Origin: Eledone cirrhosa
Taxonomy: Eukaryota
Assembly: GCA_964016885.1 (NCBI GenBank)
Contig: OZ024744.1
Span: forward strand, 126,418,001 to 126,482,000
Length of the DNA stretch: 64,000 nt
Reading direction: 5' to 3'
The notes below the pieces were generated by a model. That model did not search any database, was not told the origin of the DNA, and saw only the letters and a list, made by a program, of their open reading frames with translations. The position numbers and the translations under genes are program-made. Shown in pieces: positions 1 to 45,240 of this stretch (position 1 is the first letter of the stretch; the number at the start of each line of letters is the position of its first letter).

Positions 1-1370
1 TGAAGTCCGCCGGCGAATGGTGTGCTTCGAAGAAAACTAATTCGAAAATGACTATTTGCCGGCGGAATCACCTTTTCGGTCCTGGTCCGGCCGGATCTTG
101 CCGGATCGATCGGAAATTTGTGGACCATGTTCGGAAGGCCATTGTGCATGTGTGGTGAAAAAAATTTGTGTCGAAATCTTCTCGGAAAATAACGGATCGC
201 CGGCGGAGATTGCCATTTCGATCGTGGGCCGGCCGGATCTTGTCGGATCGATTCGGACATATGTGCATCGTGTTCGCAAGGCCCTTGTCTATGTGTGGTG
301 TGATTTTCATAAAGAAATTCCGAAAAACCCAGTTTTAAATCTGATTTCGCCAAAGAATTTTGGCTATCAGATCGGGTTGAAAGGTATGGTTTCAGGTCGA
401 TCTGAAAGTCTAAAATGGAATTCACTCGGTTAGCTAACTATTGATATATCGGAGATATCTTTCTGAAAATCACACCACACACTCCCAATGAGTGTCTGCA
501 CATGTACCAGTAATTACAGATGGATCCCACCACGGGCGGCCGGCCCACGATCGAAAAGGTTACTCCGAAGCACACCATTCGCCGGCGGAATTCATTTAGC
601 ATGGGCAGTTTTTCTCGAAAATCACACCACACACAGCCAATGAGTGTCCGCACATGTACCAGTAATTACAGATGGATCCCACCACGGGCGGCTGGCCCAC
701 GATCGAAAAGGTTACTCCGCCTGCAAACGGTCATTTTCGAATTAGTTTTCTTCGAAGCACACCATTCGCCGGCGGACTTCAGCTTCCTCATTTAGCATGG
801 GCAGTTTTTCTTGAAAATCACACCACACACAGCAAATGTGTGTCCGCACATGTACCAGTAATTACAGATCGATTCCGGTGAAAATTCACTGAAAACGGGC
901 CATTCGGCCCTGTGCGTCGATCGTGGGCCGGCCGGATGTTGACGGATCGATGTGTAATTAGAAGTACATGTGCGGACACTCATTGGCTGTGCGTGGTATG
1001 CATTTCACTAAGATATCTCCGTAACATCAAGAGTTATGGCTGTGGAGGCACACCTAGTCAAACGTAAACAAGGTCTGGAGCGTTTACGCTTCGCGATTTT
1101 GTTTACGTTTGACTAGGTGTGCCTCCACAGCGACAACTCTTGATGTTACGGAGATATCTTGCTGAAATTCATACCACGCACAGCCAATGAGTGTCCGCAC
1201 ATGTACCTGTAATTACACATCGATCCGACGACGGACAGAGTATTCGGTTTATTTTCTTGACATATTTCTTTACATATTGTCCAGGCATGCACTTTTTCCA
1301 TGATTAGTTCTGTTGACGGCCCGCTTTCCAAAATACCTTATCCTGTGCAACGCCGGGTACCACTGCTAGT
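1..1370. repeat. Terminal part of palindromic 1584-bp satellite array (block 0), ending in a Helitron-like 3' end
   Basis: Matches 10938-12307 at offset 10937 (ORF 56 vs 10993). Palindrome centre ~1085, loop 1072-1098. Confidence 0.9.
1310..1370 (+). mobile_element. Helitron-like 3' terminus (GC hairpin + CTAG|T); copies end at 12306 and 45240
   Basis: cctgtgcaacgccggg-taccactg-CTAG-T followed by (TA)n. A subterminal hairpin followed by CTRR is the canonical Helitron 3' end. Confidence 0.65.
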
Positions 1371-1588: not shown

Positions 1589-1640
<52 letters not shown>

Positions 1641-3553: not shown

Positions 3554-3752
3554 TACAAAGGTTGGCTGAAAAGTTCATAGACTATCAATGATAGCATGAT
3601 GCTAGAGCTGTGAAATCTTGCCTGCATTAATTTCAACTCTTCTTATTAATAACTGCATTGTTTCCTTCCAGGGACTATGTTGAAAAATAAACCTCATTTG
3701 GTCATTCCATGAGTGTATCTTGGTCTGCCTATGAACTTTTCAGCTGACCCTA
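3554..3752. mobile_element. Tc1/mariner-like MITE inside the RTE (present in all five RTE copies)
   Basis: TIRs ggttggctgaaaagttcatag / ctatgaacttttcagctgacc, with TA flanks. Confidence 0.7.
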
Positions 3753-4467: not shown

Positions 4468-4530
4468 CTAGCAGTGGTACCCGGCGTTGCACGGGATAAC
4501 GTATTTCGGAACGCGGGCCGCCATCTTCCA
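4468..4530 (-). mobile_element. Helitron-like 3' terminus, minus strand; copies at 15403, 19474, 48337, 52408
   Basis: (TA)n-CTAGcagtggtacccggcgttgcacgggataa is the reverse complement of 1338-1369, with ~60 bp total homology. Confidence 0.6.
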
Positions 4531-4710
4531 CTTCAGCCGGTCGCCCTAAAGTGTTGGCTATTCAGTCTACTTGAGGCCAGTTGGTGAGGGGGGTAAAGCT
4601 TTCAGTGTGCTACTACCCTCACGGTCAAATAGAAAGGGAGAGGAAGAAAAGTCAGCGTTAATATCGTGCTACACGTTTGAAAGGTTGGATGACCTTAGAG
4701 TTCACCAGGG
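4531..4710 (-). mobile_element. CR1-like LINE 3' fragment
   Basis: Minus strand reads FLTVRVVAH*KL, which resembles the CR1 ORF2 C-terminal FF.xRVVxxWNxLP motif. Confidence 0.45.
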
Positions 4711-5027
4711 TGGGGGGTTCTAAAAGTATCTATCTTGGTATTTTATCTTAGAAGTAATCATTACAGAGTGTACTGGGTGTATTTTAGTGGGCAGTAATTC
4801 CATAAAGAACACAGTATAATCTGTGGACACAAGCCTTGCAGTGTGATTACAGGCAGGTTAATGGGAAAGATAGATTATATATGTGACATGATGTACATGA
4901 GAAGTGAGGACACAGACCACACATGAAATAGATTCCTACAACTGTCAGGGAGGCTCCCTAGAATTACAGATGACATATTTCAATATCTCGGTGATCAAGT
5001 TAGCAGTGGAGGAAGAATCTCTAAAAG

Positions 5028-8000
5028 TCACACCACACACAGCCAATGAGTGTCCGCACATGTACCAGTAATTACAGATGGATCCCACCACGGGCGGCTG
5101 GCCCACGATCGAAAAGGTTACTCCGCCTGCAAACGGTCATTTTCGAATTCGTTTTCTTCGAAGCACACGATTCGCCGGCGGACTTCAGCTGCCTCATTTA
5201 GCATGGGCAGTTTTTCTCGAAAATCACACCACACACAGCAAATGTGTGTCCGCACATGTACCAGTAATTACAGATCGATTCCGGTGAAAATTCACTGAAA
5301 ACGGGCCATCCGGCCCTGTGCGTCGATCGTGGGCCGGCCGGATGTTGACGGATCGATGTGTAATTAGAAGTACATGTGCGGACACTCATTGGCTGTGCGT
5401 GGTATGCATTTCAGCAAGATATCTCCGTAACATCAAGAGTTATGGCTGTGGAGGCACACCTAGTCAAACGTAAACAAGGTCTGGAGCGTTTACGCTTCGC
5501 GATTTTGTTTACGTTTGACTAGGTGTGCCTCCACAGCCATAACTCTTGATGTTACGGAGATATCTTGCTGAAATGCATACCGCGCACAGCCAATGAGTGT
5601 CCGCACATGTACTTCTAATTACACATCGATCCGTCAACATCCGGCCGGCCCACGATCGACGCACAGGGCCGGATGGCCCGTTTTCAGTGAATTTTCACCG
5701 GAATCGATCTGTAATTACTGGTACATGTGCGGAGACACATTTGCTGTGTGTGGTGTGATTTTCAAGAAAAACTGCCCATGCTAAATGAGGAAGCTGAAGT
5801 CCGCCGGCGAATGGTGTGCTTCGAAGAAAACTAATTCGAAAATGACCGTTTGCAGGCGGAGTAACCTTTTCGATCGTGGGCCAGCCGCCCGTGGTGGGAT
5901 CCATCTGTAATTACTGGTACATGTGCGGACATACATTTGCTGTGTGTGGTGTGATTTTCAAGAAGAACTGCCCATGCTAAATGAGGAAGCTGAAGTCCGC
6001 CGGCGAATGGTGTGCTTCGAAGAAAACTAATTCGAAAATGACCGTTTGCAGGCGGGGTAACCTTTTCGATCGTGGGCCAGCCGCCCGTGGTGGGATCCAT
6101 CTGTAATTACTGGTACATGTGCGGACACACATTTGCTGTGTGTGGTGTGATTTTCGAGAAAGACTGCCCATGCTAAATGAGGAAGCTGAAGTCCGCCGGC
6201 GAATGGTGTGCTTCGAAGAAAACTAATTCGAAAATGACTATTTGCCGGCGGAATCACCTTTTCGGTCCTGGTCCGGCCGGATCTTGCCGGATCGATCGGA
6301 AATTTGTGGACCATGTTCGGAAGGCCATTGTGCATGTGTGGTGAAAAAAATTTGTGTCGAAATCTTCTCGGAAAATAACGGATCGCCGGCGGAGATTGCC
6401 ATTTCGATCGTGGGCCGGCCGGATCTTGTCGGATCGATTCGGACATATGTGCATCGTGTTCGCAAGGCCCTTGTCTATGTGTGGTGTGATTTTCATAAAG
6501 AAATTCCGAAAAACCCAGTTTTAAATCTGATTTCGCCAAAGAATTTTGGCTATCAGATCGGGTTGAAAGGTATGGTTTCAGGTCGATCTGAAAGTCTAAA
6601 ATGGAATTCACTCGGTTAGCTAACTTTTGATATATCGGAGATATCTTTCTGAAAATCACACCACACACTCCCAATGAGTGTCTGCACATGTACCAGTAAT
6701 TACAGATGGATCCCACCACGGGCTGCCGGCCCACGATCGAAAAGGTTACTCCGAAGCACACCATTCGCCGGCGGAATTCATTTAGCATGGGCAGTTTTTC
6801 TCGAAAATCACACCACACACAGCCAATGAGTGTCCGCACATGTACCAGTAATTACAGATGGATCCCACCACGGGCGGCTGGCCCACGATCGAAAAGGTTA
6901 CTCCGCCTGCAAACGGTCATTTTCGAATTCGTTTTCTTCGAAGCACACGATTCGCCGGCGGACTTCAGCTGCCTCATTTAGCATGGGCAGTTTTTCTCGA
7001 AAATCACACCACACACAGCAAATGTGTGTCCGCACATGTACCAGTAATTACAGATCGATTCCGGTGAAAATTCACTGAAAACGGGCCATTCGGCCCTGTG
7101 CGTCGATCGTGGGCCGGCCGGATGTTGACGGATCGATGTGTAATTAGAAGTACATGTGCGGACACTCATTGGCTGTGCGTGGTATGCATTTCAGCAAGAT
7201 ATCTCCGTAACATCAAGAGTTATGGCTGTGGAGGCACACCTAGTCAAACGTAAACAAGCTCTGGAGCGTATACGCTTCGCGATTTTGTTTACGTTTGACT
7301 AGGTGTGCCTCCACAGCCACAACTCTTGATGTTACGGAGATATCTTGCTGAAATGCATACCACGCACAGCCAATGAGTGTCCGCACATGTACTTCTAATT
7401 ACACATCGATCCGTCAACATCCGGCCGGCCCACGATCGACGCACAGGGCCGGATGGCCCGTTTTCAGTGAATTTTCACCGGAATCGATCTGTAATTACTG
7501 GTACATGTGCGGACACACATTTGCTGTGTGTGGTGTGATTTTCACGAAAAACTGCCCATGCTAAATGAGGAAGCTGAAGTCCGCCGGCGAATGGTGTGCT
7601 TCGAAGAAAACTAATTCGAAAATGACCGTTTGCAGGCGGGGTAACCTTTTCGATCGTGGGCCAGCCGCCCGTGGTGGGATCCATCTGTAATTACTGGTAC
7701 ATGTGCGGACACACATTTGCTGTGTGTGGTGTGATTTTCGAGAAAGACTGCCCATGCTAAATGAGGAAGCTGAAGTCCGCCGGCGAATGGTGTGCTTCGA
7801 AGAAAACTAATTCGAAAATGACTATTTGCCGGCGGAATCACCTTTTCGGTCCTGGTCCGGCCGGATCTTGCCGGATCGATCGGAAATTTGTGGACCATGT
7901 TCGGAAGGCCATTGTGCATGTGTGGTGAAAAAAATTTGTGTCGAAATCTTCTCGGAAAATAACGGATCGCCGGCGGAGATTGCCATTTCGATCGTGGGCC

Positions 8001-11000
8001 GGCCGGATCTTGTCGGATCGATTCGGACATATGTGCATCGTGTTCGCAAGGCCCTTGTCTATGTGTGGTGTGATTTTCATAAAGAAATTCCGAAAAACCC
8101 AGTTTTAAATCTGATTTCGCCAAAGAATTTTGGCTATCAGATCGGGTTGAAAGGTATGGTTTCAGGTCGATCTGAAAGTCTAAAATGGAATTCACTCGGT
8201 TAGCTAACTTTTGATATATCGGAGATATCTTTCTGAAAATCACACCACACACTCCCAATGAGTGTCTGCACATGTACCAGTAATTACAGATGGATCCCAC
8301 CACGGGCTGCCGGCCCACGATCGAAAAGGTTACTCCGAAGCACACCATTCGCCGGCGGAATTCATTTAGCATGGGCAGTTTTTCTCGAAAATCACACCAC
8401 ACACAGCCAATGAGTGTCCGCACATGTACCAGTAATTACAGATGGATCCCACCACGGGCGGCTGGCCCACGATCGAAAAGGTTACTCCGCCTGCAAACGG
8501 TCATTTCGAATTCGTTTTCTTCGAAGCACACGATTCGCCGGCGGACTTCAGCTGCCTCATTTAGCATGGGCAGTTTTTCTCGAAAATCACACCACACACA
8601 GCAAATGTGTGTCCGCACATGTACCAGTAATTACAGATCGATTCCGGTGAAAATTCACTGAAAACGGGCCATTCGGCCCTGTGCGTCGATCGTGGGCCGG
8701 CCGGATGTTGACGGATCGATGTGTAATTAGAAGTACATGTGCGGACACTCATTGGCTGTGCGTGGTATGCATTTCAGCAAGATATCTCCGTAACATCAAG
8801 AGTTATGGCTGTGGAGGCACACCTAGTCAAACGTAAACAAGCTCTGGAGCGTATACGCTTCGCGATTTTGTTTACGTTTGACTAGGTGTGCCTCCACAGC
8901 CACAACTCTTGATGTTACGGAGATATCTTGCTGAAATGCATACCACGCACAGCCAATGAGTGTCCGCACATGTACTTCTAATTACACATCGATCCGTCAA
9001 CATCCGGCCGGCCCACGATCGACGCACAGGGCCGGATGGCCCGTTTTCAGTGAATTTTCACCGGAATCGATCTGTAATTACTGGTACATGTGCGGACACA
9101 CATTTGCTGTGTGTGGTGTGATTTTCAAGAAAAACTGCCCATGCTAAATGAGGAAGCTGAAGTCCGCCGGCGAATGGTGTGCTTCGAAGAAAACTAATTC
9201 GAAAATGACCGTTTGCAGGCGGAGTAACCTTTTCGATCGTGGGCCAGCCGCCCGTGGTGGGATACATCTGTAATTACTGGTACATGTGCGGACACACATT
9301 TGCTGTGTGTGGTGTGATTTTCGAGAAAGACTGCCCATGCTAAATGAGGAAGCTGAAGTCCGCCGGCGAATGGTGTGCTTCGAAGAAAACTAATTCGAAA
9401 ATGACTATTTGCCGGCGGAATCACCTTTTCGGTCCTGGTCCGGCCGGATCTTGCCGGATCGATCGGAAGTTTGTGGACCATGTTCGGAAGGCCATTGTGC
9501 ATGTGTGGTGAAAAAAATTTGTGTCGAAATCTTCTCGGAAAATAACGGATCGCCGGCGGAGATTGCCATTTCGATCGTGGGCCGGCCGGATCTTGTCGGA
9601 TCGATTCGGACATATGTGCATCGTGTTCGCAAGGCCCTTGTCTATGTGTGGTGTGATTTTCATAAAGAAATTCCGAAAAACCCAGTTTTAAATCTGATTT
9701 CGCCAAAGAATTTTGGCTATCAGATCGGGTTGAAAGGTATGGTTTCAGGTCGATCTGAAAGTCTAAAATGGAATTCACTCGGTTAGCTAACTTTTGATAT
9801 ATCGGAGATATCTTTCTGAAAATCACACCACACACTCCCAATGAGTGTCTGCACATGTACCAGTAATTACAGATGGATCCCACCACGGGCGGCCGGCCCA
9901 CGATCGAAAAGGTTACTCCGAAGCACACCATTCGCCGGCGGAATTCATTTAGCATGGGCAGTTTTTCTCGAAAATCACACCACACACAGCCAATGAGTGT
10001 CCGCACATGTACCAGTAATTACAGATGGATCCCACCACGGGCGGCTGGCCCACGATCGAAAAGGTTACTCCGCCTGCAAACGGTCATTTTCGAATTCGTT
10101 TTCTTCGAAGCACACGATTCGCCGGCGGACTTCAGCTGCCTCATTTAGCATGGGCAGTTTTTCTCGAAAATCACACCACACACAGCAAATGTGTGTCCGC
10201 ACATGTACCAGTAATTACAGATCGATTCCGGTGAAAATTCACTGAAAACGGGCCATTCGGCCCTGTGCGTCGATCGTGGGCCGGCCGGATGTTGACGGAT
10301 CGATGTGTAATTAGAAGTACATGTGCGGACACTCATTGGCTGTGCGTGGTATGCATTTCAGCAAGATATCTCCGTAACATCAAGAGTTATGGCTGTGGAG
10401 GCACACCTAGTCAAACGTAAACAAGCTCTGGAGCGTATACGCTTCGCGATTTTGTTTACGTTTGACTAGGTGTGCCTCCACAGCCACAACTCTTGATGTT
10501 ACGGAGATATCTTGCTGAAATGCATACCACGCACAGCCAATGAGTGTCCGCACATGTACTTCTAATTACACATCGATCCGTCAACATCCGGCCGGCCCAC
10601 GATCGACGCACAGGGCCGGATGGCCCGTTTTCAGTGAATTTTCACCGGAATCGATCTGTAATTACTGGTACATGTGCGGACACACATTTGCTGTGTGTGG
10701 TGTGATTTTCACGAAAAACTGCCCATGCTAAATGAGGAAGCTGAAGTCCGCCGGCGAATGGTGTGCTTCGAAGAAAACTAATTCGAAAATGACCGTTTGC
10801 AGGCGGAGTAACCTTTTCGATCGTGGGCCAGCCGCCCGTGGTGGGATACATCTGTAATTACTGGTACATGTGCGGACACACATTTGCTGTGTGTGGTGTG
10901 ATTTTCGAGAAAGACTGCCCATGCTAAATGAGGAAGCTGAAGTCCGCCGGCGAATGGTGTGCTTCGAAGAAAACTAATTCGAAAATGACTATTTGCCGGC

Positions 11001-12306
11001 GGAATCACCTTTTCGGTCCTGGTCCGGCCGGATCTTGCCGGATCGATCGGAAATTTGTGGACCATGTTCGGAAGGCCATTGTGCATGTGTGGTGAAAAAA
11101 ATTTGTGTCGAAATCTTCTCGGAAAATAACGGATCGCCGGCGGAGATTGCCATTTCGATCGTGGGCCGGCCGGATCTTGTCGGATCGATTCGGACATATG
11201 TGCATCGTGTTCGCAAGGCCCTTGTCTATGTGTGGTGTGATTTTCATAAAGAAATTCCGAAAAACCCAGTTTTAAATCTGATTTCGCCAAAGAATTTTGG
11301 CTATCAGATCGGGTTGAAAGGTATGGTTTCAGGTCGATCTGAAAGTCTAAAATGGAATTCACTCGGTTAGCTAACTATTGATATATCGGAGATATCTTTC
11401 TGAAAATCACACCACACACTCCCAATGAGTGTCTGCACATGTACCAGTAATTACAGATGGATCCCACCACGGGCGGCCGGCCCACGATCGAAAAGGTTAC
11501 TCCGAAGCACACCATTCGCCGGCGGAATTCATTTAGCATGGGCAGTTTTTCTCGAAAATCACACCACACACAGCCAATGAGTGTCCGCACATGTACCAGT
11601 AATTACAGATGGATCCCACCACGGGCGGCTGGCCCACGATCGAAAAGGTTACTCCGCCTGCAAACGGTCATTTTCGAATTAGTTTTCTTCGAAGCACACC
11701 ATTCGCCGGCGGACTTCAGCTTCCTCATTTAGCATGGGCAGTTTTTCTTGAAAATCACACCACACACAGCAAATGTGTGTCCGCACATGTACCAGTAATT
11801 ACAGATCGATTCCGGTGAAAATTCACTGAAAACGGGCCATTCGGCCCTGTGCGTCGATCGTGGGCCGGCCGGATGTTGACGGATCGATGTGTAATTAGAA
11901 GTACATGTGCGGACACTCATTGGCTGTGCGTGGTATGCATTTCACTAAGATATCTCCGTAACATCAAGAGTTATGGCTGTGGAGGCACACCTAGTCAAAC
12001 GTAAACAAGGTCTGGAGCGTTTACGCTTCGCGATTTTGTTTACGTTTGACTAGGTGTGCCTCCACAGCGACAACTCTTGATGTTACGGAGATATCTTGCT
12101 GAAATTCATACCACGCACAGCCAATGAGTGTCCGCACATGTACCTGTAATTACACATCGATCCGACGACGGACAGAGTATTCGGTTTATTTTCTTGACAT
12201 ATTTCTTTACATATTGTCCAGGCATGCACTTTTTCCATGATTAGTTCTGTTGACGGCCCGCTTTCCAAAATACCTTATCCTGTGCAACGCCGGGTACCAC
12301 TGCTAG
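5028..12306. repeat. 1584-bp higher-order palindromic satellite, block 1 (5 palindrome centres)
   Basis: ORF periodicity 6242/7826/9409/10993. 196-bp monomers occur in both orientations. Centres at ~5491, 7271, 8854, 10438, 12022. Confidence 0.95.
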
Positions 12307-12525
12307 TATATATATGTGTATGTATATATATATATATATATTGGTAAACGGAATAGAAAATTGTGACAAATTGTTCACAGTGAAAAATAGTTTAATTAGG
12401 AATAAGTGATAATTAGTAATAGTATTGGTTAGTATTAAGTTTTGGTTTTAAGTTTTACCGGTTGCGCATTTCTAATGCTTTTCAAAAATAATTTTGAGAT
12501 AGAGCGTCCGTGATGTTTGCTCTGA

Positions 12526-12577
<52 letters not shown>

Positions 12578-21444: not shown

Positions 21445-21480
<36 letters not shown>

Positions 21481-33395: not shown

Positions 33396-33490
33396 TACCC
33401 TAACCCTAAACCTAACCCCAACTCCAACTCTGACCCTAAACCTAACCCCAACCCCAACCCCAACCCTAACCCTAACCCTAACCCTAACCC
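33396..33490 (-). repeat. Interstitial telomeric repeat (TTAGGG)n, variant to perfect
   Basis: ~16 CCCTAA/CCCCAA hexamers. The last four are perfect and abut the 172-bp array. Confidence 0.85.
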
Positions 33491-34247
33491 ACGATAGAAG
33501 ACGTTCGTTACCGCTGGAGCAACGCAAATTACTCCTCGGTTGACGCCAAAAACGAACGCCTTCTCGACGGCTAGCCGCATTTCGTGATCCGCCTTTCGAT
33601 TGCGCTTCCGTCGCGGAAAAAGAATTGCCTTTATAGGCCGCCGCCGCCCGACCGGACCCACGATAGAAGACGTTCGTTACCGCTGGAGCAACGCAAATTA
33701 CTCCTCGGTTGACGCCAAAAACGAACGCCTTCTCGACGGCTAGCCGCATTTCGTGATCCGCCTTTCGATTGCGCTTCCGTCGCGGAAAAAGAATTGCCTT
33801 TATAGGCCGCCGCCGCCGCCCGACCGGACCCACGATAGAAGACGTTCGTTACCGCTGGAGCAACGCAAATTACTCCTCGGTTGACGCCAAAAACGAACGC
33901 CTTCTCGACGGCTAGCCGCATTTCGTGATCCGCCTTTCGATTGCGCTTCCGTCGCGGAAAAAGAATTGCCTTTATAGGCCGCCGCCGCCGCCCGACCGGA
34001 CCCACGATAGAAGACGTTCGTTACCGCTGGAGCAACGCAAATTACTCCTCGGTTGACGCCAAAAACGAACGCCTTCTCGACGGCTAGCCGCATTTCGTGA
34101 TCCGCCTTTCGATTGCGCTTCCGTCGCGGAAAAAGAATTGCCTTTATAGGCCGCCGCCGCCGCCCGACCGGACCCACGATAGAAGACGTTCGTTACCGCT
34201 GGAGCAACGCAAATTACTCCTCGGTTGACGCCAAAAACGAACGCCTT
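33490..34247 (+). repeat. GC-rich 172-bp tandem repeat (4.4 copies), putative rDNA spacer subrepeats
   Basis: cacgatagaag at 33490, 33659, 33831, 34003 and 34175. Lies ~360 bp upstream of the 18S 5' end. Confidence 0.85.
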
Positions 34248-34605
34248 CCGGTTCGGGCGACGTAAAAGTCTGTAGCCTTTTCGCCGATCCTCGACGATTA
34301 TCCGCCTTCCGAACAACCGCCTTTCCGCCGTCACAGCAGTAGGTACTCGTCCGTCGTAATAGCCGTCATTTTAATGCAGGAGAAACGCCTAAATGCACTG
34401 CGATTGACGACGATCTACGACGCGCTTACTCTTCCTTGCTGCGACGAAGGTTTCGTTCGGCTTTTCGTCGTGGACCCGGTCAGGTCATGCCGCTGATCTC
34501 GCGTTGCGTCGTTACCGCTGGAGCAACGCAAATTACTCCTCGTTTAACGCCAACATCGAACGCGCTTCGGTTCTCGGTCGTCGTTGTTTTGTTTCGTGCG
34601 GAAGA

Positions 34606-34790
34606 TACCTGGGTGATCCTGCCAGTAGTCATATGCTTGTCTCAAAGCTTAAGCCATGCAAGTGGAAGTTCATGCCGTAAACGAAAATGGTGAAACCGCG
34701 AATGGCTCAGGAACCGGATCTAATCCTCGGGACCGTATTCCTCACCGCGAGGAGAGGATAACTGTGGCAATTCTAGAGCTAATACATGCA
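34606..34790 (+). rRNA. 18S rRNA 5' fragment (truncated, pseudogene-like)
   Basis: tacctgggtgatcctgccagtagtcatatgcttgtctcaaagcttaagccatgca ... ggataactgtggcaattctagagctaatacatgc matches the universal eukaryotic 18S start. Confidence 0.9.
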
Positions 34791-36050
34791 ATTGAGATCG
34801 GAGAGGGAGCGATCCGTCTGCTTGATTCCGATAACGAACGAGACATTCGTATCCGAAAGAACGTTTGTCTGGAAACTGGTGAGTCAGTGAGTCGAAAAAA
34901 AAAATATCTCGGTGGTAGTAGCAAATATTCGAACGAGACATTCGTATGCGAAAGAACGTTTGTCGGTGGTAGTAGCAAATATTCGAACGAGACATTCGTA
35001 TGCGAAAGAACGTTTGTCTGGAAGTGGCGATCCATGCCCGGTGGATAGTTGGTTCCGGGTTTTACTATGATTGTTGCAAAACAGAAACTTAAAGGGATTG
35101 ACAGAATTTGCGATTCCGGAGAGAGGGCGATCCGTCTGCTTGATTCCGATAACGAACGAGACATTCGTATCCGAGAGAACGTTTGTCTGGAAACTGGTGA
35201 GTCAGTGAGTCGAAAAAAAAATATCTCGGTGGTAGTAGCAAATATTCGAACGAGACATTCGTATGCGAAAGAAAAATATCTCGGTGGTAGTAGCAAATAT
35301 TCGAACGAGACATTCGTATGCGAAAGAACGTTTGTCTGGAAGTGGCGATCCATGCCCGGTGGATAGTTGGTTCCGGGTTTTACTATGATTGTTGCAAAAC
35401 AGAAACTTAAAGGGATTGACAGAATTTGCCATTCCGGAGAGGGGGCGATCCGTCTGCTTGATTCCGATAACGAACGAGACATTCGTATCCGAAAGAACGT
35501 TTGTCTGGAAACTGGTGAGTCAGTGAGTCGAAAAAAAAATATCTCGGTGGTAGTAGCAAATATTCGAACGAGACATTCGTATGCGAAAGAACGTTTGTCT
35601 GGAAGTGGCGATCCATGCTCGGTGGATAGTTGGTTCCGGGTTTTACTATGATTGTTGCAAAACAGAAACTTAAAGGGATTGACAGAATTTGCGATTCCGG
35701 AGAGGGGGCGATCCGTCTGCTTGATTCCGATAACGAACGAGACATTCGTATCCGAAAGAACGTTTGTCTGGAAACTGGTGAGTCAGTGAGTCGAAAAAAA
35801 AATATCTCGGTGGTAGTAGCAAATATTCGTATGCGAAAGAAAAGATCTCGGTGGTAGTAGCAAATATTCGAACGAGACATTCGTATGCGAAAGAAAAATA
35901 TCTCGGTGGTAGTAGCAAATATTCGAACGAGACATTCGTATTCGAAAGAACGTTTGTCTGGAAGTTGCGATCCATGCCCGGTGGATAGTTGGTTCCGGGC
36001 TTTACTATGATTGTTGCAAAACAGAAACTTAAAGGAATTGACAGAATTTT
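34791..36050 (+). pseudogene. Four tandem units (318/318/263/~340 bp) of scrambled 18S and 28S rRNA fragments
   Basis: 18S motifs gattccggagaggg, ttccgataacgaacgagac, cattcgtat, gaaacttaaagg.attgac. 28S motif ggtggtagtagcaaatattc.aacgaga. Confidence 0.8.
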
Positions 36051-36089
36051 CGAATCGACATCAACTCGGCTACGGCTATCCCGTCGAGT

Positions 36090-36430
36090 ACGAGAGTATC
36101 GCGGGATCAGAGCAACGGTTTGCTAGGCTGCCTCTGAGCGATAACGGCTGAACGCCTCCTCTAAGCCGGAACCCTAGCCGGACCCGAGTTGTTTTTCGAC
36201 AAGCGTCTCGACCTTCTTAAGGCCCATGCCTTAGTTTGGCGATTGCCGTCCGTTCGCCGACGGCGGCAGCGTCAGCGGAAATGCCATTCTGTGACGACTA
36301 CGACGATTCGTCGTCGTCGTCGTCCATTCGATTTCCTGAAAGAGATAGAGACTAAAGTGATCAAATTGTTCGGAGTTACGTGCTTAGTAGAGCAGCTACC
36401 ACACTGCAATCTATTGAGAGTTTTCTGACG
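36090..36430 (+). rRNA. 28S rRNA 3'-terminal fragment (degenerate)
   Basis: ctgaacgcctc..ctaagcc and gtagagcagctacc.cactgcaatctattga resemble the 28S 3' end. Confidence 0.7.
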
Positions 36431-37454
36431 AACGATACAATCCGCCCACGTGGCGCCAGAAAGGGAGAAGAAAAGAAAAGTTAGACGCCGCCGATCGATC
36501 GGTTCGTTGTTTTACGTGTACACAGCTTGTGTGTGTGTCTGTATGTGATACAAGCCGCCTATCCGTCTTCCAAGTAAGTTTTGTGTGTAGACTGCGGAAA
36601 GAAATCCAATCCGCCGTCTAGGCGGTTCTGCCGCCGACCCATACTTTTGCGAGTCGCTCCCGGGAAAGACAGGCGGCAAGACGGCGTGTATACACGACGC
36701 CTTCCGTCTTCCGCCTCGAACCCGGGCAAACGTTCCTTTATTCGTCCACGCCTTCCCGCTTCGATCGCGAGAAAGTAATCAATCTGTTTTGTGTGTGTGT
36801 CTGTGTGTGATACAAATTTGTTTTCTTAATTTGATAACCATGAATTGTTTCAACACCGGCCCTTTTAAGGGCCACTTATATTTTCAATAATCAGTTTAAA
36901 TGGGTTGCACCGTAGCCACTTGGTAATACACTGCAAATCTCCCGTCAATCTATGAAGGTTTTGTAGTAGATTAGATCAAAACACAATCAGCAAGACAGTA
37001 ATGGAATGAATAATATAAACATTTGTTTATAATTAAAGCCTTAAGATGTCCCTCCCTCCCTCCCTTCCTCCCTTCCTTCCTTCCTTCCTTCCTTCCTTAC
37101 GATATACACTTTAATAACATTGAAACTTATTTAATAAGTTTAAATTTTAAACACTTTTTATTCAGACGTACCGCGATAAGTAACTAGATATGTTCTAACG
37201 AATAATCCGCGATGTGGCGAGGATTACCGCGATAGGAAATTAGATACGTTCCAAAGAAATATCCGCGAAAAGTGAACCGCGATATAGCGGGTTCACCAGC
37301 CAGTGTATTACTGGTACTTTATTTTATCGACCCCCATAAGGATGAAAGGCAAAGTTAACTGTGCAATAACAAAGGGAGATAACCTCGTCTTTTTTTTTTT
37401 ACGGAGTTATTTCCCTTTAAATTTTATCTATTACTTATGATGATACAATTTAAT

Positions 37455-37586
37455 CAGTTCTTAGCTGTCGAGACACTGCATCCTTTAAAACCTCCATGGA
37501 ACAAGCTACCTGCAACAGTTGTTAGCTGTCGAGACACTGCATCTTTTAAAACCTCCATGGAACAAACTACCTGCATCAGTTGTTAG
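37455..37586 (+). mobile_element. CR1-like 3' fragment, tandemly duplicated
   Basis: Reads WNKLPA.VVSCRDTASFKTSM about twice. Confidence 0.55.
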
Positions 37587-37852
37587 GGTCTGAGTTCAAA
37601 TCACGCCGAGGAGGTTAACTTTGCCTTTCATCCTTACGGGGTCGGTCGGAAAACGAACCATTCCCGGTTCGCTTTCGAAGCGGGTTTCCGAAAACAGCGC
37701 TTCTCTCGACCGGGCCCGTCGTCCGCTCGGCGGTGGTTTTCATCGTCCCAGGCACGGCTAACAGGCGGAGACGGGACAAACGCGCGTGTTCCTTTTTTTA
37801 TCAGCCGCAGCGCCGTTCGTATATATGCTTAGGTTGTTTTTTTTTTAAATAT

Positions 37853-38100
37853 CCTAAGTTAAGTTGGGGCTAAGTTAAGTTGGGGCTAAGTTAAGTTGGG
37901 GCTAAGTTGAGTTGGGGTTAAGTTAAGTGGGGGTTAAGTTAAGCTGGGGTTAAGTTAAGTTGAGGTTAAGTTAAGTTGGGGTTAAGTCAAGTTGGGGTTA
38001 AGTTAAGTTGGGGTTAAGTTAGGTTGGGGTTAAGTTAGGTTGGGGTTAAGTTAGGTTGGGGTTAAGTTAAGTTGGGGTTAAGTTAGGTTGCGGTTAAGTT
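37853..38100 (+). repeat. 16-bp G-rich minisatellite (TTAAGTTA[A/G]GTTGGGG) x~15
   Basis: ggggc at 37866, 37882 and 37898. Abuts the start of satellite block 2. Confidence 0.9.
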
Positions 38101-41100
38101 ACATTCGCCGCCGGACTTCAGCTTCCTCATTTAGCATGGGCAGTTTTTCTTGAAAATCACACCACACACAGCAAATGTGTGTCCGCACATGTACCAGTAA
38201 TTACAGATGGATCCCACCACGGGCGGCTGGCCCACGATCGAAAAGGTTACTCCGCCTGCAAACGGTCATTTTCGAATTCGTTTTCTTCGAAGCACACGAT
38301 TCGCCGGCGGACTTCAGCTGCCTCATTTAGCATGGGCAGTTTTTCTCGAAAATCACACCACACACAGCAAATGTGTGTCCGCACATGTACCAGTAATTAC
38401 AGATCGATTCCGGTGAAAATTCACTGAAAACGGGCCATTCGGCCCTGTGCGTCGATCGTGGGCCGGCCGGATGTTGACGGATCGATGTGTAATTAGAAGT
38501 ACATGTGCGGACACTCATTGGCTGTGCGTGGTATGCATTTCAGCAAGATATCTCCGTAACATCAAGAGTTATGGCTGTGGAGGCACACCTAGTCAAACGT
38601 AAACAAGCTCTGGAGCGTATACGCTTCGCGATTTTGTTTACGTTTGACTAGGTGTGCCTCCACAGCCACAACTCTTGATGTTACGGAGATATCTTGCTGA
38701 AATGCATACCACGCACAGCCAATGAGTGTCCGCACATGTACTTCTAATTACACATCGATCCGTCAACATCCGGCCGGCCCACGATCGACGCACAGGGCCG
38801 GATGGCCCGTTTTCAGTGAATTTTCACCGGAATCGATCTGTAATTACTGGTACATGTGCGGACACACATTTGCTGTGTGTGGTGTGATTTTCACGAAAAA
38901 CTGCCCATGCTAAATGAGGAAGCTGAAGTCCGCCGGCGAATGGTGTGCTTCGAAGAAAACTAATTCGAAAATGACCGTTTGCAGGCGGAGTAACCTTTTC
39001 GATCGTGGGCCAGCCGCCCGTGGTGGGATACATCTGTAATTACTGGTACATGTGCGGACACACATTTGCTGTGTGTGGTGTGATTTTCGAGAAAGACTGC
39101 CCATGCTAAATGAGGAAGCTGAAGTCCGCCGGCGAATGGTGTGCTTCGAAGAAAACTAATTCGAAAATGACTATTTGCCGGCGGAATCACCTTTTCGGTC
39201 CTGGTCCGGCCGGATCTTGCCGGATCGATCGGAAATTTGTGGACCATGTTCGGAAGGCCATTGTGCATGTGTGATGAAAAAAATTTGTGTCGAAATCTTC
39301 TCGGAAAATAACGGATCGCCGGCGGAGATTGCCATTTCGATCGTGGGCCGGCCGGATCTTGTCGGATCGATTCGGACATATGTGCATCGTGTTCGCAAGG
39401 CCCTTGTCTATGTGTGGTGTGATTTTCATAAAGAAATTCCGAAAAACCCAGTTTTAAATCTGATTTCGCCAAAGAATTTTGGCTATCAGATCGGGTTGAA
39501 AGGTATGGTTTCAGGTCGATCTGAAAGTCTAAAATGGAATTCACTCGGTTAGCTAACTTTTGATATATCGGAGATATCTTTCTGAAAATCACACCACACA
39601 CTCCCAATGAGTGTCTGCACATGGACCAGTAATTACAGATGGATCCCACCACGGGCGGCCGGCCCACGATCGAAAAGGTTACTCCGAAGCACACCATTCG
39701 CCGGCGGAATTCATTTAGCATGGGCAGTTTTTCTCGAAAATCACACCACACACAGCCAATGAGTGTCCGCACATGTACCAGTAATTACAGATGGATCCCA
39801 CCACGGGCGGCTGGCCCACGATCGAAAAGGTTACTCCGCCTGCAAACGGTCATTTTCGAATTAGTTTTCTTCGAAGCACACCATTCGCCGGCGGACTTCA
39901 GCTTCCTCATTTAGCATGGGCAGTTTTTCTCGAAAATCACACCACACACAGCAAATGTGTGTCCGCACATGTACCAGTAATTACAGATCGATTCCGGTGA
40001 AAATTCACTGAAAACGGGCCATTCTGCCCTGTGCGTCGATCGTGGGCCGGCCGGATGTTGACGGATCGATGTGTAATTAGAAGTACATGTGCGGACACTC
40101 ATTGGCTGTGCGTGGTATGCATTTCAGCAAGATATCTCCGTAACATCAAGAGTTATGGCTGTGGAGGCACACCTAGTCAAACGTAAACAAGCTCTGGAGC
40201 GTATACGCTTCGCGATTTTGTTTACGTTTGACTAGGTGTGCCTCCACAGCCACAACTCTTGATGTTACGGAGATATCTTGCTGAAATGCATACCACGCAC
40301 AGCCAATGAGGGTCCGCACATGTACTTCTAATTACACATCGATCCGTCAACATCCGGCCGGCCCACGATCGACGCACAGGGCCGGATGGCCCGTTTTCAG
40401 TGAATTTTCACCGGAATCGATCTGTAATTACTGGTACATGTGCGGACACACATTTGCTGTGTGTGGTGTGATTTTCACGAAAAACTGCCCATGCTAAATG
40501 AGGAAGCTGAAGTCCGCCGGCGAATGGTGTGCTTCGAAGAAAACTAATTCGAAAATGACCGTTTGCAGGCGGAGTAACCTTTTCGATCGTGGGCCAGCCG
40601 CCCGTGGTGGGATACATCTGTAATTACTGGTACATGTGCGGACACACATTTGCTGTGTGTGGTGTGATTTTCGAGAAAGACTGCCCATGCTAAATGAGGA
40701 AGCTGAAGTCCGCCGGCGAATGGTGTGCTTCGAAGAAAACTAATTCGAAAATGACTATTTGCCGGCGGAATCACCTTTTCGGTCCTGGTCCGGCCGGATC
40801 TTGCCGGATCGATCGGAAATTTGTGGACCATGTTCGGAAGGCCATTGTGCATGTGTGGTGAAAAAAATTTGTGTCGAAATCTTCTCGGAAAATAACGGAT
40901 CGCCGGCGGAGATTGCCATTTCGATCGTGGGCCGGCCGGATCTTGTCGGATCGATTCGGACATATGTGCATCGTGTTCGCAAGGCCCTTGTCTATGTGTG
41001 GTATGATTTTCATAAAGAAATTCCGAAAAACCCAGTTTTAAATCTGATTTCGCCAAAGAATTTTGGCTATCAGATCGGGTTGAAAGGTATGGTTTCAGGT

Positions 41101-44100
41101 CGATCTGAAAGTCTAAAATGGAATTCACTCGGTTAGCTAACTTTTGATATATCGGAGATATCTTTCTGAAAATCACACCACACACTCCCAATGAGTGTCT
41201 GCACATGTACCAGTAATTACAGATGGATCCCACCACGGGCGGCCGGCCCACGATCGAAAAGGTTACTCCGAAGCACACCATTCGCCGGCGGAATTCATTT
41301 AGCATGGGCAGTTTTTCTCGAAAATCACACCACACACAGCCAATGAGTGTCCGCACATGTACCAGTAATTACAGATGGATCCCACCACGGGCGGCTGGCC
41401 CACGATCGAAAAGGTTACTCCGCCTGCAAACGGTCATTTTCGAATTAGTTTTCTTCGAAGCACACCATTCGCCGGCGGACTTCAGCTTCCTCATTTAGCA
41501 TGGGCAGTTTTTCTCGAAAATCACACCACACACAGCAAATGTGTGTCCGCACATGTACCAGTAATTACAGATCGATTCCGGTGAAAATTCACTGAAAACG
41601 GGCCATTCTGCCCTGTGCGTCGATCGTGGGCCGGCCGGATGTTGACGGATCGATGTGTAATTAGAAGTACATGTGCGGACACTCATTGGCTGTGCGTGGT
41701 ATGCATTTCAGCAAGATATCTCCGTAACATCAAGAGTTATGGCTGTGGAGGCACACCTAGTCAAACGTAAACAAGCTCTGGAGCGTATACGCTTCGCGAT
41801 TTTGTTTACGTTTGACTAGGTGTGCCTCCACAGCCACAACTCTTGATGTTACGGAGATATCTTGCTGAAATGCATACCACGCACAGCCAATGAGGGTCCG
41901 CACATGTACTTCTAATTACACATCGATCCGTCAACATCCGGCCGGCCCACGATCGACGCACAGGGCCGGATGGCCCGTTTTCAGTGAATTTTCACCGGAA
42001 TCGATCTGTAATTACTGGTACATGTGCGGACACACATTTGCTGTGTGTGGTGTGATTTTCACGAAAAACTGCCCATGCTAAATGAGGAAGCTGAAGTCCG
42101 CCGGCGAATGGTGTGCTTCGAAGAAAACTAATTCGAAAATGACCGTTTGCAGGCGGAGTAACCTTTTCGATCGTGGGCCAGCCGCCCGTGGTGGGATACA
42201 TCTGTAATTACTGGTACATGTGCGGACACACATTTGCTGTGTGTGGTGTGATTTTCGAGAAAGACTGCCCATGCTAAATGAGGAAGCTGAAGTCCGCCGG
42301 CGAATGGTGTGCTTCGAAGAAAACTAATTCGAAAATGACTATTTGCCGGCGGAATCACCTTTTCGGTCCTGGTCCGGCCGGATCTTGCCGGATCGATCGG
42401 AAATTTGTGGACCATGTTCGGAAGGCCATTGTGCATGTGTGGTGAAAAAAATTTGTGTCGAAATCTTCTCGGAAAATAACGGATCGCCGGCGGAGATTGC
42501 CATTTCGATCGTGGGCCGGCCGGATCTTGTCGGATCGATTCGGACATATGTGCATCGTGTTCGCAAGGCCCTTGTCTATGTGTGGTATGATTTTCATAAA
42601 GAAATTCCGAAAAACCCAGTTTTAAATCTGATTTCGCCAAAGAATTTTGGCTATCAGATCGGGTTGAAAGGTATGGTTTCAGGTCGATCTGAAAGTCTAA
42701 AATGGAATTCACTCGGTTAGCTAACTTTTGATATATCGGAGATATCTTTCTGAAAATCACACCACACACTCCCAATGAGTGTCTGCACATGTACCAGTAA
42801 TTACAGATGGATCCCACCACGGGCGGCCGGCCCACGATCGAAAAGGTTACTCCGAAGCACACCATTCGCCGGCGGAATTCATTTAGCATGGGCAGTTTTT
42901 CTCGAAAATCACACCACACACAGCCAATGAGTGTCCGCACATGTACCAGTAATTACAGATGGATCCCACCACGGGCGGCTGGCCCACGATCGAAAAGGTT
43001 ACTCCGCCTGCAAACGGTCATTTTCGAATTAGTTTTCTTCGAAGCACACCATTCGCCGGCGGACTTCAGCTTCCTCATTTAGCATGGGCAGTTTTTCTCG
43101 AAAATCACACCACACACAGCAAATGTGTGTCCGCACATGTACCAGTAATTACAGATCGATTCCGGTGAAAATTCACTGAAAACGGGCCATTCTGCCCTGT
43201 GCGTCGATCGTGGGCCGGCCGGATGTTGACGGATCGATGTGTAATTAGAAGTACATGTGCGGACACTCATTGGCTGTGCGTGGTATGCATTTCAGCAAGA
43301 TATCTCCGTAACATCAAGAGTTATGGCTGTGGAGGCACACCTAGTCAAACGTAAACAAGCTCTGGAGCGTATACGCTTCGCGATTTTGTTTACGTTTGAC
43401 TAGGTGTGCCTCCACAGCCACAACTCTTGATGTTACGGAGATATCTTGCTGAAATGCATACCACGCACAGCCAATGAGGGTCCGCACATGTACTTCTAAT
43501 TACACATCGATCCGTCAACATCCGGCCGGCCCACGATCGACGCACAGGGCCGGATGGCCCGTTTTCAGTGAATTTTCACCGGAATCGATCTGTAATTACT
43601 GGTACATGTGCGGACACACATTTGCTGTGTGTGGTGTGATTTTCACGAAAAACTGCCCATGCTAAATGAGGAAGCTGAAGTCCGCCGGCGAATGGTGTGC
43701 TTCGAAGAAAACTAATTCGAAAATGACCGTTTGCAGGCGGAGTAACCTTTTCGATCGTGGGCCAGCCGCCCGTGGTGGGATACATCTGTAATTACTGGTA
43801 CATGTGCGGACACACATTTGCTGTGTGTGGTGTGATTTTCGAGAAAGACTGCCCATGCTAAATGAGGAAGCTGAAGTCCGCCGGCGAATGGTGTGCTTCG
43901 AAGAAAACTAATTCGAAAATGACTATTTGCCGGCGGAATCACCTTTTCGGTCCTGGTCCGGCCGGATCTTGCCGGATCGATCGGAAATTTGTGGACCATG
44001 TTCGGAAGGCCATTGTGCATGTGTGGTGAAAAAAATTTGTGTCGAAATCTTCTCGGAAAATAACGGATCGCCGGCGGAGATTGCCATTTCGATCGTGGGC

Positions 44101-45240
44101 CGGCCGGATCTTGTCGGATCGATTCGGACATATGTGCATCGTGTTCGCAAGGCCCTTGTCTATGTGTGGTATGATTTTCATAAAGAAATTCCGAAAAACC
44201 CAGTTTTAAATCTGATTTCGCCAAAGAATTTTGGCTATCAGATCGGGTTGAAAGGTATGGTTTCAGGTCGATCTGAAAGTCTAAAATGGAATTCACTCGG
44301 TTAGCTAACTATTGATATATCGGAGATATCTTTCTGAAAATCACACCACACACTCCCAATGAGTGTCTGCACATGTACCAGTAATTACAGATGGATCCCA
44401 CCACGGGCGGCCGGCCCACGATCGAAAAGGTTACTCCGAAGCACACCATTCGCCGGCGGAATTCATTTAGCATGGGCAGTTTTTCTCGAACATCACACCA
44501 CACACAGCCAATGAGTGTCCGCACATGTACCAGTAATTACAGATGGATCCCACCACGGGCGGCTGGCCCACGATCGAAAAGGTTACTCCGCCTGCAAACG
44601 GTCATTTTCGAATTAGTTTTCTTCGAAGCACACCATTCGCCGGCGGACTTCAGCTTCCTCATTTAGCATGGGCAGTTTTTCTTGAAAATCACACCACACA
44701 CAGCAAATGTGTGTCCGCACATGTACCAGTAATTACAGATCGATTCCGGTGAAAATTCACTGAAAACGGGCCATTCGGCCCTGTGCGTCGATCGTGGGCC
44801 GGCCGGATGTTGACGGATCGATGTGTAATTAGAAGTACATGTGCGGACACTCATTGGCTGTGCGTGGTATGCATTTCACTAAGATATCTCCGTAACATCA
44901 AGAGTTATGGCTGTGGAGGCACACCTAGTCAAACGTAAACAAGGTCTGGAGCGTTTACGCTTCGCGATTTTGTTTACGTTTGACTAGGTGTGCCTCCACA
45001 GCGACAACTCTTGATGTTACGGAGATATCTTGCTGAAATTCATACCACGCACAGCCAATGAGTGTCCGCACATGTACCTGTAATTACACATCGATCCGAC
45101 GACGGACAGAGTATTCGGTTTATTTTCTTGACATATTTCTTTACATATTGTCCAGGCATGCACTTTTTCCATGATTAGTTCTGTTGACGGCCCGCTTTCC
45201 AAAATACCTTATCCTGTGCAACGCCGGGTACCACTGCTAG
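38101..45240. repeat. 1584-bp palindromic satellite, block 2 (5 centres), ending in the Helitron-like end
   Basis: ORF periodicity 39175/40759/42343/43927. Centres at ~38620, 40204, 41788, 43372, 44956. Confidence 0.95.

Follow-up and report, generated by a model that had tools for sequence, protein, structure and literature searches.

Results

The window, i.e., the whole stretch of 64,000 nucleotides of Eledone cirrhosa DNA analysed here, contains a tandem array of a 1584-bp unit at positions 5018..12164 (all features are on the + strand unless stated otherwise). The array begins with a variant unit (5018-6649), continues with full units at 6650-8233, 8234-9816, and 9817-11400, and ends in an incomplete unit of 764 bp (11401-12164). 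The original prediction had placed it at 5028-12306; the array is real, but its bounds differ, and the final ~140 bp of that range are AT-rich flank. The same unit also occurs at 1..1227, in the last part of a preceding array that the window start truncates, and in a third array (38102..45098) located directly 3' of a 16-bp minisatellite. With the unit at 6650..8233 as reference, a BLAST comparison against the window recovered full copies at 8234, 9817, 39583, 41167, and 42751 (99.37-99.75% identity), and every copy gave an inverted self-match over unit positions 94-1159 (94.6-94.7%). The unit is a non-coding tandem repeat composed of a 1.07-kb imperfect palindrome and a non-palindromic spacer (7809..8233) of degenerate forward monomers and unique sequence. 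Its monomers are diverged members of one family (84-97% alike), while whole units follow one another head-to-tail (6650, 8234, 9817; 39583, 41167, 42751) with 99.4-99.7% identity. Together with the arm alignment below, the unit copies and the self-match bear out the claim of a higher-order tandem repeat with a large nested palindrome as its unit.

The left arm of the palindrome (515 nt, 6743..7257) consists of reverse 196-type monomers, a 72-bp diverged monomer piece, and a forward 227-type partial monomer, and is mirrored by the right arm (524 nt, 7285..7808). In the left arm, monomers of 196 bp and of a 152-bp deleted form are in reverse orientation; in the right arm, 196-bp monomers run forward, and a 27-bp loop separates the two arms. 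The aligned arms are identical in 500 of 524 columns (95.4%), with 15 substitutions and one 9-bp indel. An arm length of ~450-550 bp had been expected and agrees with this. The accompanying expectation of nearly perfect arms holds for the inner 258 nt (2 differences, 99.2% alike) but not for the outer 257 nt, which contain 13 substitutions and the 9-bp indel (about 91% alike). Possible causes of this difference between inner and outer arms are selection for pairing, conversion between the arms, and a later origin.

The asymmetric loop (7258..7284) carries the 12-bp mini-palindrome AGCGTATACGCT at 7265-7276. Its length is 27 bp in all 11 centres of the window, always in one orientation. As anticipated, AGCGTATACGCT is present in the loops of most units (7 of 11); the four edge units have AGCGTTTACGCT, and so do 15 of the 17 copies on C18 among the matches listed. 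Because of these copies, we rejected the AGCGTATACGCT mini-palindrome as an essential feature. Along the unit, the 62-bp head motif of the monomer is ordered - - - + | - + + +, which confirms a second, internal inversion in each arm. In the left arm, this inversion (6998..7193) comprises a head in minus orientation (6998-7059), a 72-bp spacer, and a head in plus orientation (7132-7193).

Among seven units compared, 18 of 1584 columns are variable. The differences between the arms thus recur in nearly all units, which suggests that the palindrome predates the amplification. Unit positions 281, 300, and 322 are linked sites that jointly switch to the state of the other arm in the array 38102-45098, a switch that represents exchange of sequence between arms or between monomers.

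As single-stranded DNA, 1000 nt are predicted to fold into one long hairpin of -641.3 kcal/mol, compared to -147.7 +/- 7.1 kcal/mol for 20 shuffles (z -69). This minimum-energy fold is a single unbranched hairpin and does not support the branched hairpins proposed earlier. By itself, the local internal inversion is also predicted to fold (-60 kcal/mol, z -10.3), suggesting a stable side hairpin that would form as an alternative fold only. Given the single long hairpin of the single strand, the duplex is predicted to be prone to cruciform extrusion or replication-linked hairpins.

We considered whether the inversions could be an assembly or long-read fold-back artefact, the check on which the original prediction had made itself dependent. 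In favor of this, 200-N gaps bound the cluster on both sides, and the run with the best coverage may be the assembly's own sample. However, artefacts give perfect arms and random centres, whereas the arms here are 4.6% apart and the loop is fixed at 27 bp. Searching the whole assembly (3.0 Gb) with a loop pattern of 34 places yielded 349 forward and 9 reverse exact matches, i.e., 358 copies with the same centre, and none for a control pattern. Furthermore, contigs of the runs X1, X2, X6, and X4 from three studies (P1, P2, and P3) span the palindrome centre, and contigs of X1, X2, and X6 contain the joint that goes back 1584. In X10 and X11, parts of the unit including the centre are without contig cover, and no raw Hi-C reads of X23 and X24 (organism I) were placed, from only about 1-2% of each run; neither result implies absence. 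The centre-bridging contigs and the 358 exact centres demonstrate that the palindrome is not a fold-back artefact. To this reading we assign practically no probability, and as far as the palindrome is concerned it is refuted; the macro-units described below are provisional in their number and order.

The arrays were said to be CpG-rich compared to AT-rich flanks, and the numbers agree: the observed/expected ratio of CpG is 1.15 in the arrays versus 0.23-0.27 in the flanks (0.35 in the ZNF region, 1.58 in the neighbouring rDNA remnant), and the GC content is 48.6% versus 38-39%. None of the 17 substitutions between units is a CpG transition. Judged from sequence composition, this could point to germline hypomethylation or constraint instead of neutrality. 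The CpG richness is common to the parent 196/227-bp satellite.

The longest open frame is on the minus strand (274 codons, 7614-8435) and exceeds all of 500 dinucleotide shuffles, whose maximum was 250. A protein encoded by the unit would be in line with this length and with the frame being open in the C18 variant too. However, the frame matched no Pfam family and none of 168 candidate homologues at E <= 0.001, and its 13 differences to the C18 copy comprise 3 synonymous and 10 non-synonymous codons (codon positions 6/3/4). On this evidence we rejected the coding hypothesis, which we regard as having next to no chance of being correct; the length of the stop-free frame is not explained here. 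A scan of 6400-8500 against Rfam, including hammerhead-type ribozyme satellites, gave only matches at E >= 0.086, far below the gathering thresholds.

A foldback transposon or MITE-derived tandem array, spread by transposition, would also present inverted arms of short tandem repeats. Foldback elements have repetitive inverted arms, and the inner 279 bp of the unit (7132-7410) resemble an element with 62-bp terminal inverted repeats. However, these 'terminal repeats' are the head of the satellite monomer, and the flanks of the inner element read as mirror images and not as direct duplications. There is no transposase-like frame, the longest frame having neither Pfam families nor homologues. 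Target-site duplications or copies at unrelated loci were not found; the copies are restricted to the macro-repeat and a segmental copy of it, with low-scoring dispersed copies scored in part. The 40 scored of 515 genome copies are all on C28, where the + strand was the better match in 40 of 40. Since the exact centres among the matches listed (all but 258 of the 358) come first on C18 and then on C28, none of them is on C1-C17, and the C18 locus is a copy of a whole macro-unit. The unit shows no features of a foldback transposon or MITE, a match to which could have undone the original prediction, and we consider a transposon origin highly improbable.

Only three settings contain the palindromic form: a stretch of ~1.8 Mb on C28 that consists of 28-49-kb macro-repeats, a locus on C18 that is a segmental copy of the macro-unit (98-99%), and unplaced contigs. 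As assembled, each array has 2-8 units. The unit variant on C18 is 1780 bp long, with an inverted match of ~1190 bp compared to 1066 bp. In total, the 358 centres amount to about 0.02% of the assembly, and this low number in 3.0 Gb and the confinement to these places distinguish the unit from an abundant megabase (peri)centromeric satellite.

The macro-repeat is derived from rDNA. Between 124.73 and 126.45 Mb, C28 carries at least 35 copies of a degenerate-rDNA piece, each with 100% identity and on the + strand. In the window and in three macro-units that were compared with one another, an array starts ~2.15 kb downstream of this piece. Both the confinement to the macro-repeat and this position downstream of degenerate rDNA are direct observations. 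In the degenerate rDNA unit upstream of the third array (33487..37855), promoter-side repeats of 172 bp are accompanied by a piece from the 5' part of 18S, rRNA fragments in a mosaic arrangement, the 3' end of the LSU (36060-36442), and a single spacer subrepeat; from this LSU-rRNA 3' end remnant, it is 1660 bp downstream to the start of the array. The promoter-side repeats and upstream region, which precede the arrays on the same strand, resemble true rDNA at 88-95%.

This setting raises the question of whether the unit is a structural or functional spacer of a nucleolus-organiser-like region, e.g., a fork barrier, a terminator, or a protein-binding or non-B-DNA element that would be CpG-rich because it is unmethylated. 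The recurring distance to the rDNA remnant and a CpG ratio like that of this remnant are consistent with such a role, and, according to the excerpted text of PMC13081366, a significance for chromatin has been suggested for the dyad symmetries of Tribolium satellites. However, the adjoining rDNA is a deleted mosaic. Moreover, comparing the unit with two complete units of true rDNA, 22.5 kb and 40 kb long, gave only chance matches of 13-18 bases (E 3.9), and as the exact loops among the matches listed come first on C18 and then on C28, none falls on the contigs with the true 18S genes (C2, C4, C12, and C25). The unit is therefore not an intergenic-spacer subrepeat of the true rDNA examined, and a spacer function appears unlikely.

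The 28-nt head motif (<=2 mismatches) occurs 17454 + 7102 times in the assembly. In two 10-kb samples of C1, the satellite is purely head-to-tail, with long monomer matches on one strand in 45 of 45 and 42 of 42 cases. These samples contain 196-bp monomers as well as 227-bp monomers with a 1950-bp higher-order period, and the 196/227-bp family is also present on C4. The outer arms of the palindrome are homologous to 196-type monomers and the inner arms to 227-type monomers (81-87% alike for the inner arm). The 1584-bp unit is a rearranged, low-copy offshoot of this far larger, conventional, CpG-rich satellite. The ordinary parent satellite, the rDNA-derived macro-repeat, and the Tribolium precedents discussed below were all missed in the original prediction.

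Discussion

Our results are best explained by a tandem repeat whose palindrome is built of inverted satellite pieces and which arose through inverted duplication, amplification, and copying of the macro-repeat, without a sequence-specific function of its own. We consider this explanation probable. The palindrome likely originated by an inverted (fold-back) duplication inside a junction where 196-type and 227-type monomers meet; the asymmetric 27-bp centre would suit such a putative fold-back origin. Unequal crossing-over then probably multiplied the entire 1584-bp unit, and further copies probably arose via duplication of the surrounding 28-49-kb rDNA-derived macro-repeat. This order of events and the lack of a function specific to the sequence are what we infer from the arrangement of the copies. 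Against this explanation, we count the constant orientation of the loop in the 11 window copies and the better match of the + strand in all 40 scored copies.

The original proposal of a source of dsRNA or siRNA leads to a different explanation, in which the unit is a hairpin RNA (hpRNA) locus whose transcription would give ~520-bp stems that are diced to siRNAs acting in trans on the 196/227-bp satellite. The unit recurs in tandem and contains an extended, nearly perfect inverted repeat, which according to the predicted fold is able to form a dsRNA stem. Read-through would be possible from the putative retained rDNA-type promoter region about 4 kb upstream, given its similarity to true rDNA and its location on the same strand. 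In addition, 225 of 1564 21-mers of the unit, mostly from the outer arms, have exact matches in ~23 kb sampled from the main satellite. However, a rearrangement by-product explains the palindrome equally well, and Pol I transcripts are not known as Dicer substrates. A tandem example of an hpRNA locus is hp-CG4068. In Drosophila, hpRNA loci producing endo-siRNAs are a known class (PMC10317233), with long inverted repeats, sometimes in tandem, and homology to a target family; the present unit would be hpRNA-like if transcribed. Unlike for these loci, its putative target would be a satellite and not a gene. Overall, we consider an hpRNA locus possible but rather unlikely. Still more doubtful is the stronger version, in which about fifty dead rDNA units with promoter-like regions drive 520-bp hairpins as a trans-acting siRNA factory that silences the 196/227-bp satellite. 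Such a factory would be an animal counterpart of the maize inverted-duplication silencer Mu killer.

Returning to the origin by inverted duplication and amplification, related architectures exist. Large palindromes can arise from a short inverted repeat near a break, as in the rDNA palindrome of Tetrahymena and in palindromic gene amplification. By analogy, long arms and a short asymmetric spacer, 27 bp here, would be the expected footprint of fold-back priming; unlike those single and much larger palindromes, the unit is tandem-amplified with arms 4.6% diverged. Closer in kind are the satellites of Tribolium beetles. In the excerpted text of PMC13081366, the major satellite of Tribolium brevicornis has a 1061-bp unit with ~470-bp inverted segments, and TmSat2 of Tribolium madens a 704-bp unit with ~300-bp inverted repeats. 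As in the unit described here, inverted subunits of one ancestral monomer form a long imperfect palindrome or dyad with a predicted single hairpin. However, the arms here are longer (515/524 bp, and an inverted match of ~1190 bp in the C18 variant), and the unit is an offshoot with 358 centres (about 0.02% of the assembly) and not the main satellite. It also resides in an rDNA-derived macro-repeat and not in a megabase (peri)centromeric block. The likeness considered here is one of architecture. The macro-dyad arrays of T. madens and T. freemani as well as T. castaneum in the same text likewise show switches of monomer orientation and conserved inversion sites; there, multi-kilobase subarrays are inverted once per array, whereas here the inversion is inside a 1.6-kb head-to-tail unit.

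The repeat itself did not appear in a printed description in the literature text searched. Its kind is known: long inverted subunits already occur in described satellites of Tribolium, a type of satellite termed 'not so common' in the excerpted text of PMC13081366, and the unit is large, not unprecedented. Its arms exceed the ~470-bp record case of that text. In the present case, the genome itself reveals the source satellite and even the type of monomer where the inversion occurred. The CpG-island-like composition and the place behind degenerate rDNA turn germline hypomethylation and a hairpin RNA directed against the parent satellite into testable ideas, an hpRNA or siRNA role of the palindromic unit being a possibility. 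Long palindromes are fragile. The locus offers a natural case for the formation of a palindromic repeat, its stabilisation through an asymmetric 27-bp centre and diverged outer arms, and its subsequent amplification.

Structure of the palindromic unit

Comparison of the reference copy (6650-8233) with the whole window by BLAST bore out the original prediction of a 1584-bp tandem unit that is itself a nested palindrome. Direct full-length copies begin at 8234, 9817, 39583, 41167 and 42751 (99.37-99.75% identity), and every unit copy contains an inverted self-match over unit positions 94-1159 (94.6-94.7%). The array in question spans 5018-12164 rather than the predicted 5028-12306, and further palindromic-unit arrays lie at 1-1227 and 38102-45098. 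Tandem Repeats Finder reported a 196-bp periodicity at 5703-6279, 7483-7863, 9070-9446, 10654-11030 and also 38836-44028. On C28, the contig from which the window is taken (126418001-126482000), unit spacings of 1388, 1780 and 2776 bp reveal variants differing by whole monomers.

With exact matches to its flanking words fixing the position of the loop, the left arm (6743-7257) measures 515 nt and the right arm (7285-7808) 524 nt, within the expected ~450-550 bp. The arms agree in 500 of 524 columns (95.4%); 15 substitutions and a single 9-bp indel separate them. The near-perfection ascribed to them holds for the inner 258 nt (2 differences), but not for the outer 257 nt (13 substitutions and the indel). 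The predicted 27-bp loop occurs in one common orientation at 11/11 centres in the window. Its mini-palindrome, said to be present in most units, was found as AGCGTATACGCT in seven of these centres, while AGCGTTTACGCT occupies the loop in four, all in array-edge units.

Alignment of one 196-bp monomer to the unit mapped a 62-bp head motif to unit positions 1-62 (-), followed by a 152-bp deleted monomer (63-214, -), a full monomer (215-410, -), a diverged 72-bp monomer piece (411-482), a head (483-544, +), the centre including the loop (545-699), the mirror of the left arm (700-1159) and a non-palindromic spacer (1160-1584). Heads are ordered - - - + in the left half and - + + + in the right, followed by degenerate forward copies. 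Both monomer forms noted originally were recovered, as was a second internal inversion per arm, visible as the head flip in the left half. Reverse-oriented 196-bp and 152-bp deleted forms build the left arm, and forward 196-bp forms the right. The segment spanning the boundary between units resembles the inner arms at 81.5%, and the whole unit is therefore one sequence family.

Folded as single-stranded DNA, 1000 nt centred on the loop were predicted to form one continuous hairpin of -641.3 kcal/mol (z -69; 20 shuffles, mean -147.7 kcal/mol, sd 7.1) rather than the branched hairpins envisaged originally. The internal inversion alone gave a predicted -60 kcal/mol (z -10.3); in these models its local fold is an alternative structure and no branch of the minimum-energy fold.

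The noted CpG richness was reproduced, with an observed/expected ratio of 1.15 in the palindromic arrays versus 0.23-0.27 in ordinary flanking DNA; the ratio was 0.35 in the zinc-finger gene region and 1.58 in the rDNA remnant. None of 17 unit-to-unit substitutions was a CpG transition. This composition suggests that the palindromic repeats may be spared methylation in the germline or may be of very recent origin.

Independent evidence for the inversion

The original prediction had named read fold-back artefacts as its possible undoing. Contigs built independently from public sequencing runs bridge the centre: record 5 of run X1, record 21 of X2 and record 28 of X6 each cover 86-87 nt of 7228-7314 with 0 differences, and record 14 of X4 bridges the last unit's centre. 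The head-to-tail joint, where the sequence goes back 1584 bp, is present in contigs of X1, X2 and X6. Genome-wide mapping, proposed as a check, with a loop pattern of 34 places gave exact matches at 349 forward and 9 reverse sites, and the reversed control returned 0 across the whole assembly. These bridging contigs and 358 exact centres speak against chimeric fold-back reads, an explanation we reject, as such reads would produce just the reverse of arms that have diverged around a constant, asymmetric loop.

Parts of the unit were present in 20 runs from 17 studies under many organism labels, in some cases as pieces with 0 differences over 350-490 nt under differing labels, and as a minor fraction of two metagenomes from wastewater. 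For one organism so labelled, raw Hi-C reads gave 0 matches (~1-2% of each run sampled). The cross-label occurrence may reflect close relatives, mislabelling or carry-over.

Origin from a conventional satellite

At two or fewer mismatches, a 28-nt head motif occurs 17454 + 7102 times in the assembly (~24,500), far above the capacity of 358 units. A junction motif forming a loose end in X1 contigs occurs 3004 + 7572 times, including on contig C469 and at 279.70-279.97 Mb of contig C1. Two 10-kb stretches sampled from C1, representing this parent satellite, are conventional head-to-tail arrays as CpG-rich as the palindromic ones (observed/expected 1.14-1.38). One consists of 196-bp monomers (45/45 hits of at least 150 bp on one strand; mean 87.7% identity to the unit's monomer), the other of 227-bp monomers showing higher-order periodicity at 1950 bp (42/42 on one strand). 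The family also occurs on C4 at 211.9-212.1 Mb.

Between the head and the end of the centre arm, the inner palindrome arm shares 81-87% identity with its homologue, the 227-type monomer, and the centre lies at the end of the 227-specific segment. It follows that 196-type monomers make up the outer arms, whereas each inner arm is part of a 227-type monomer. Judged by these homologies, the palindromic unit is a rearranged junction of 196-type and 227-type monomers.

A degenerate rDNA macro-repeat

Within the 3.0-Gb assembly, the arrays on C28 (136.5 Mb) are embedded in a larger repeat. Window positions 5896-23965 recur at 38829-56899 (99.8%), and 1-5028 is found again at 10938 and 43872 (99.9%); an N run occupies 56900-57099. 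A degenerate rDNA unit at 33487-37855 comprises 172-bp repeats (x4.4, promoter-side) and an upstream region 88-95% like that preceding true 18S genes, a 235-bp stretch from the 18S 5' end (94.5% identity), short rRNA fragments arranged as a mosaic (318-bp repeats of 18S/28S pieces), the 3' end of the LSU gene and a single spacer subrepeat. Rfam placed LSU positions 3005-3399 at 36060-36442 (61.6 bits) and a sub-threshold SSU piece at 34662-34937 (26.9 bits). The array at 38102 begins 1660 bp past the LSU end.

A 581-bp piece of this remnant (35950-36530) has at least 35 copies at 124.73-126.45 Mb of C28, all on the + strand at 100% identity, among the best 40 of 234 candidates that were scored; consecutive scored copies lie 28-49 kb apart. 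Further copies lie on the unplaced contigs C178 and C398. For three copies compared (124729580, 124989427 and 125216813), the distance from the start of the piece to the next array start downstream is 2136-2152 bp. The cluster begins just past another 200-N gap near 124.69 Mb and ends inside the window, with no copy in the next 10 kb. The degenerate rDNA unit is the core of a 28-49-kb macro-repeat with at least 35 copies in one orientation, which in the assembly make up a ~1.8-Mb 'dead rDNA' megasatellite between gaps. A second locus, at 6.74-6.85 Mb of C18, is a segmental copy that matches the macro-unit at 98-99% apart from deletions, and carries a 1780-bp unit variant whose inverted match is ~1190 bp versus 1066 bp.

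Each macro-unit also contains interstitial telomere-like (TAACCC/ACCCTA)n tracts (23478-23557, 33397-33490, 56412-56491), one directly adjoining rDNA-type 172-bp repeats, which hints at a subtelomeric origin of the macro-repeat. An isolated second copy of the promoter-side repeats and upstream region lies within the macro-unit but far from the remnant (26529-27308; 78-95% to true rDNA). A 16-bp minisatellite (TAAGTTAAGTTGGGGT x15, 37855-38101) adjoins the array start at 38102, and another, of 48 bp (x11), is found later in the macro-unit, at 20698-21219. A histone 3' stem-loop match at 36853-36897 (+; 36.6 bits, threshold 34), with no upstream histone reading frame, may be a remnant or chance. 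An 84-bp periodicity at 57101-57562 and 63183-63998 (-) corresponds to tandem C2H2 zinc-finger repeats (seven zf-H2C2_2 stretches within a 205-aa frame); this gene cluster adjoins the macro-repeat, and a similar flank lies beside the C18 copy.

True 18S genes occur on C2, C4, C12 and C25. Those on C25, C12 and C2 span ~2.87 kb for an 1831-position model, implying ~1 kb of expansion segments. Two complete true rDNA units (22.5 kb on C12, 40 kb on C4) shared only 13-18-base chance matches with the 1584-bp unit (E 3.9). Among the matches listed, exact loops appear first on C18 and then on C28, and therefore on none of the true-rDNA contigs. On these two units and the listed matches, we reject the unit as a component of true rDNA.

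Coding, RNA and transposon readings

A 274-codon stop-free frame at 7614-8435 (-), present also in other units and on C18, is longer than in 500/500 dinucleotide shuffles. A coding reading is rejected, as the frame matched 0 Pfam families and 0 homologues and, of its codon changes relative to the C18 copy, 3 are synonymous and 10 non-synonymous. An Rfam scan of the unit returned no family. The prediction had allowed for a foldback or MITE family; transposon hallmarks were found neither in the unit nor in its copies, and weak dispersed copies would fall outside the best-scored candidates to which the genome searches were confined.

Proposed order of events

Variation across seven units is confined to 18 of the 1584 columns, so that the arm differences recur in nearly all of them, and we infer that the palindrome predates its tandem amplification. 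It may have formed by fold-back priming at a break, a process that yields palindromes with an asymmetric centre; the asymmetric 27-bp centre would fit. Central asymmetry also stabilises palindromes. The arrays listed on C28 hold 2-8 centres each, with the T loop variant in edge units and the A variant in interior units; this pattern suggests that the array layout preceded macro-unit duplication and that the interior unit number has changed since. In the array at 38102-45098, linked sites at unit positions 281, 300 and 322 carry the other arm's state, indicating that arms or monomers have exchanged a tract of 42 bp or more by conversion.

Relation to known systems and possible role

TmSat2 of Tribolium madens, as described in PMC13081366, has a unit of 704 bp in which oppositely oriented subunits form inverted repeats of ~300 bp. 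The palindromic unit belongs to one kind with the Tribolium satellites covered there, its arms being slightly longer. Unlike them, it is low-copy, descends from a conventional satellite still found in its own genome, and lies inside an rDNA-derived macro-repeat. The nearest functional analogy is with hpRNA loci (PMC10317233). Because 225 of the 1564 unit 21-mers exactly match a small (~23-kb) sample of the parent satellite, it is conceivable that the palindromic unit acts in trans silencing of its parent satellite.
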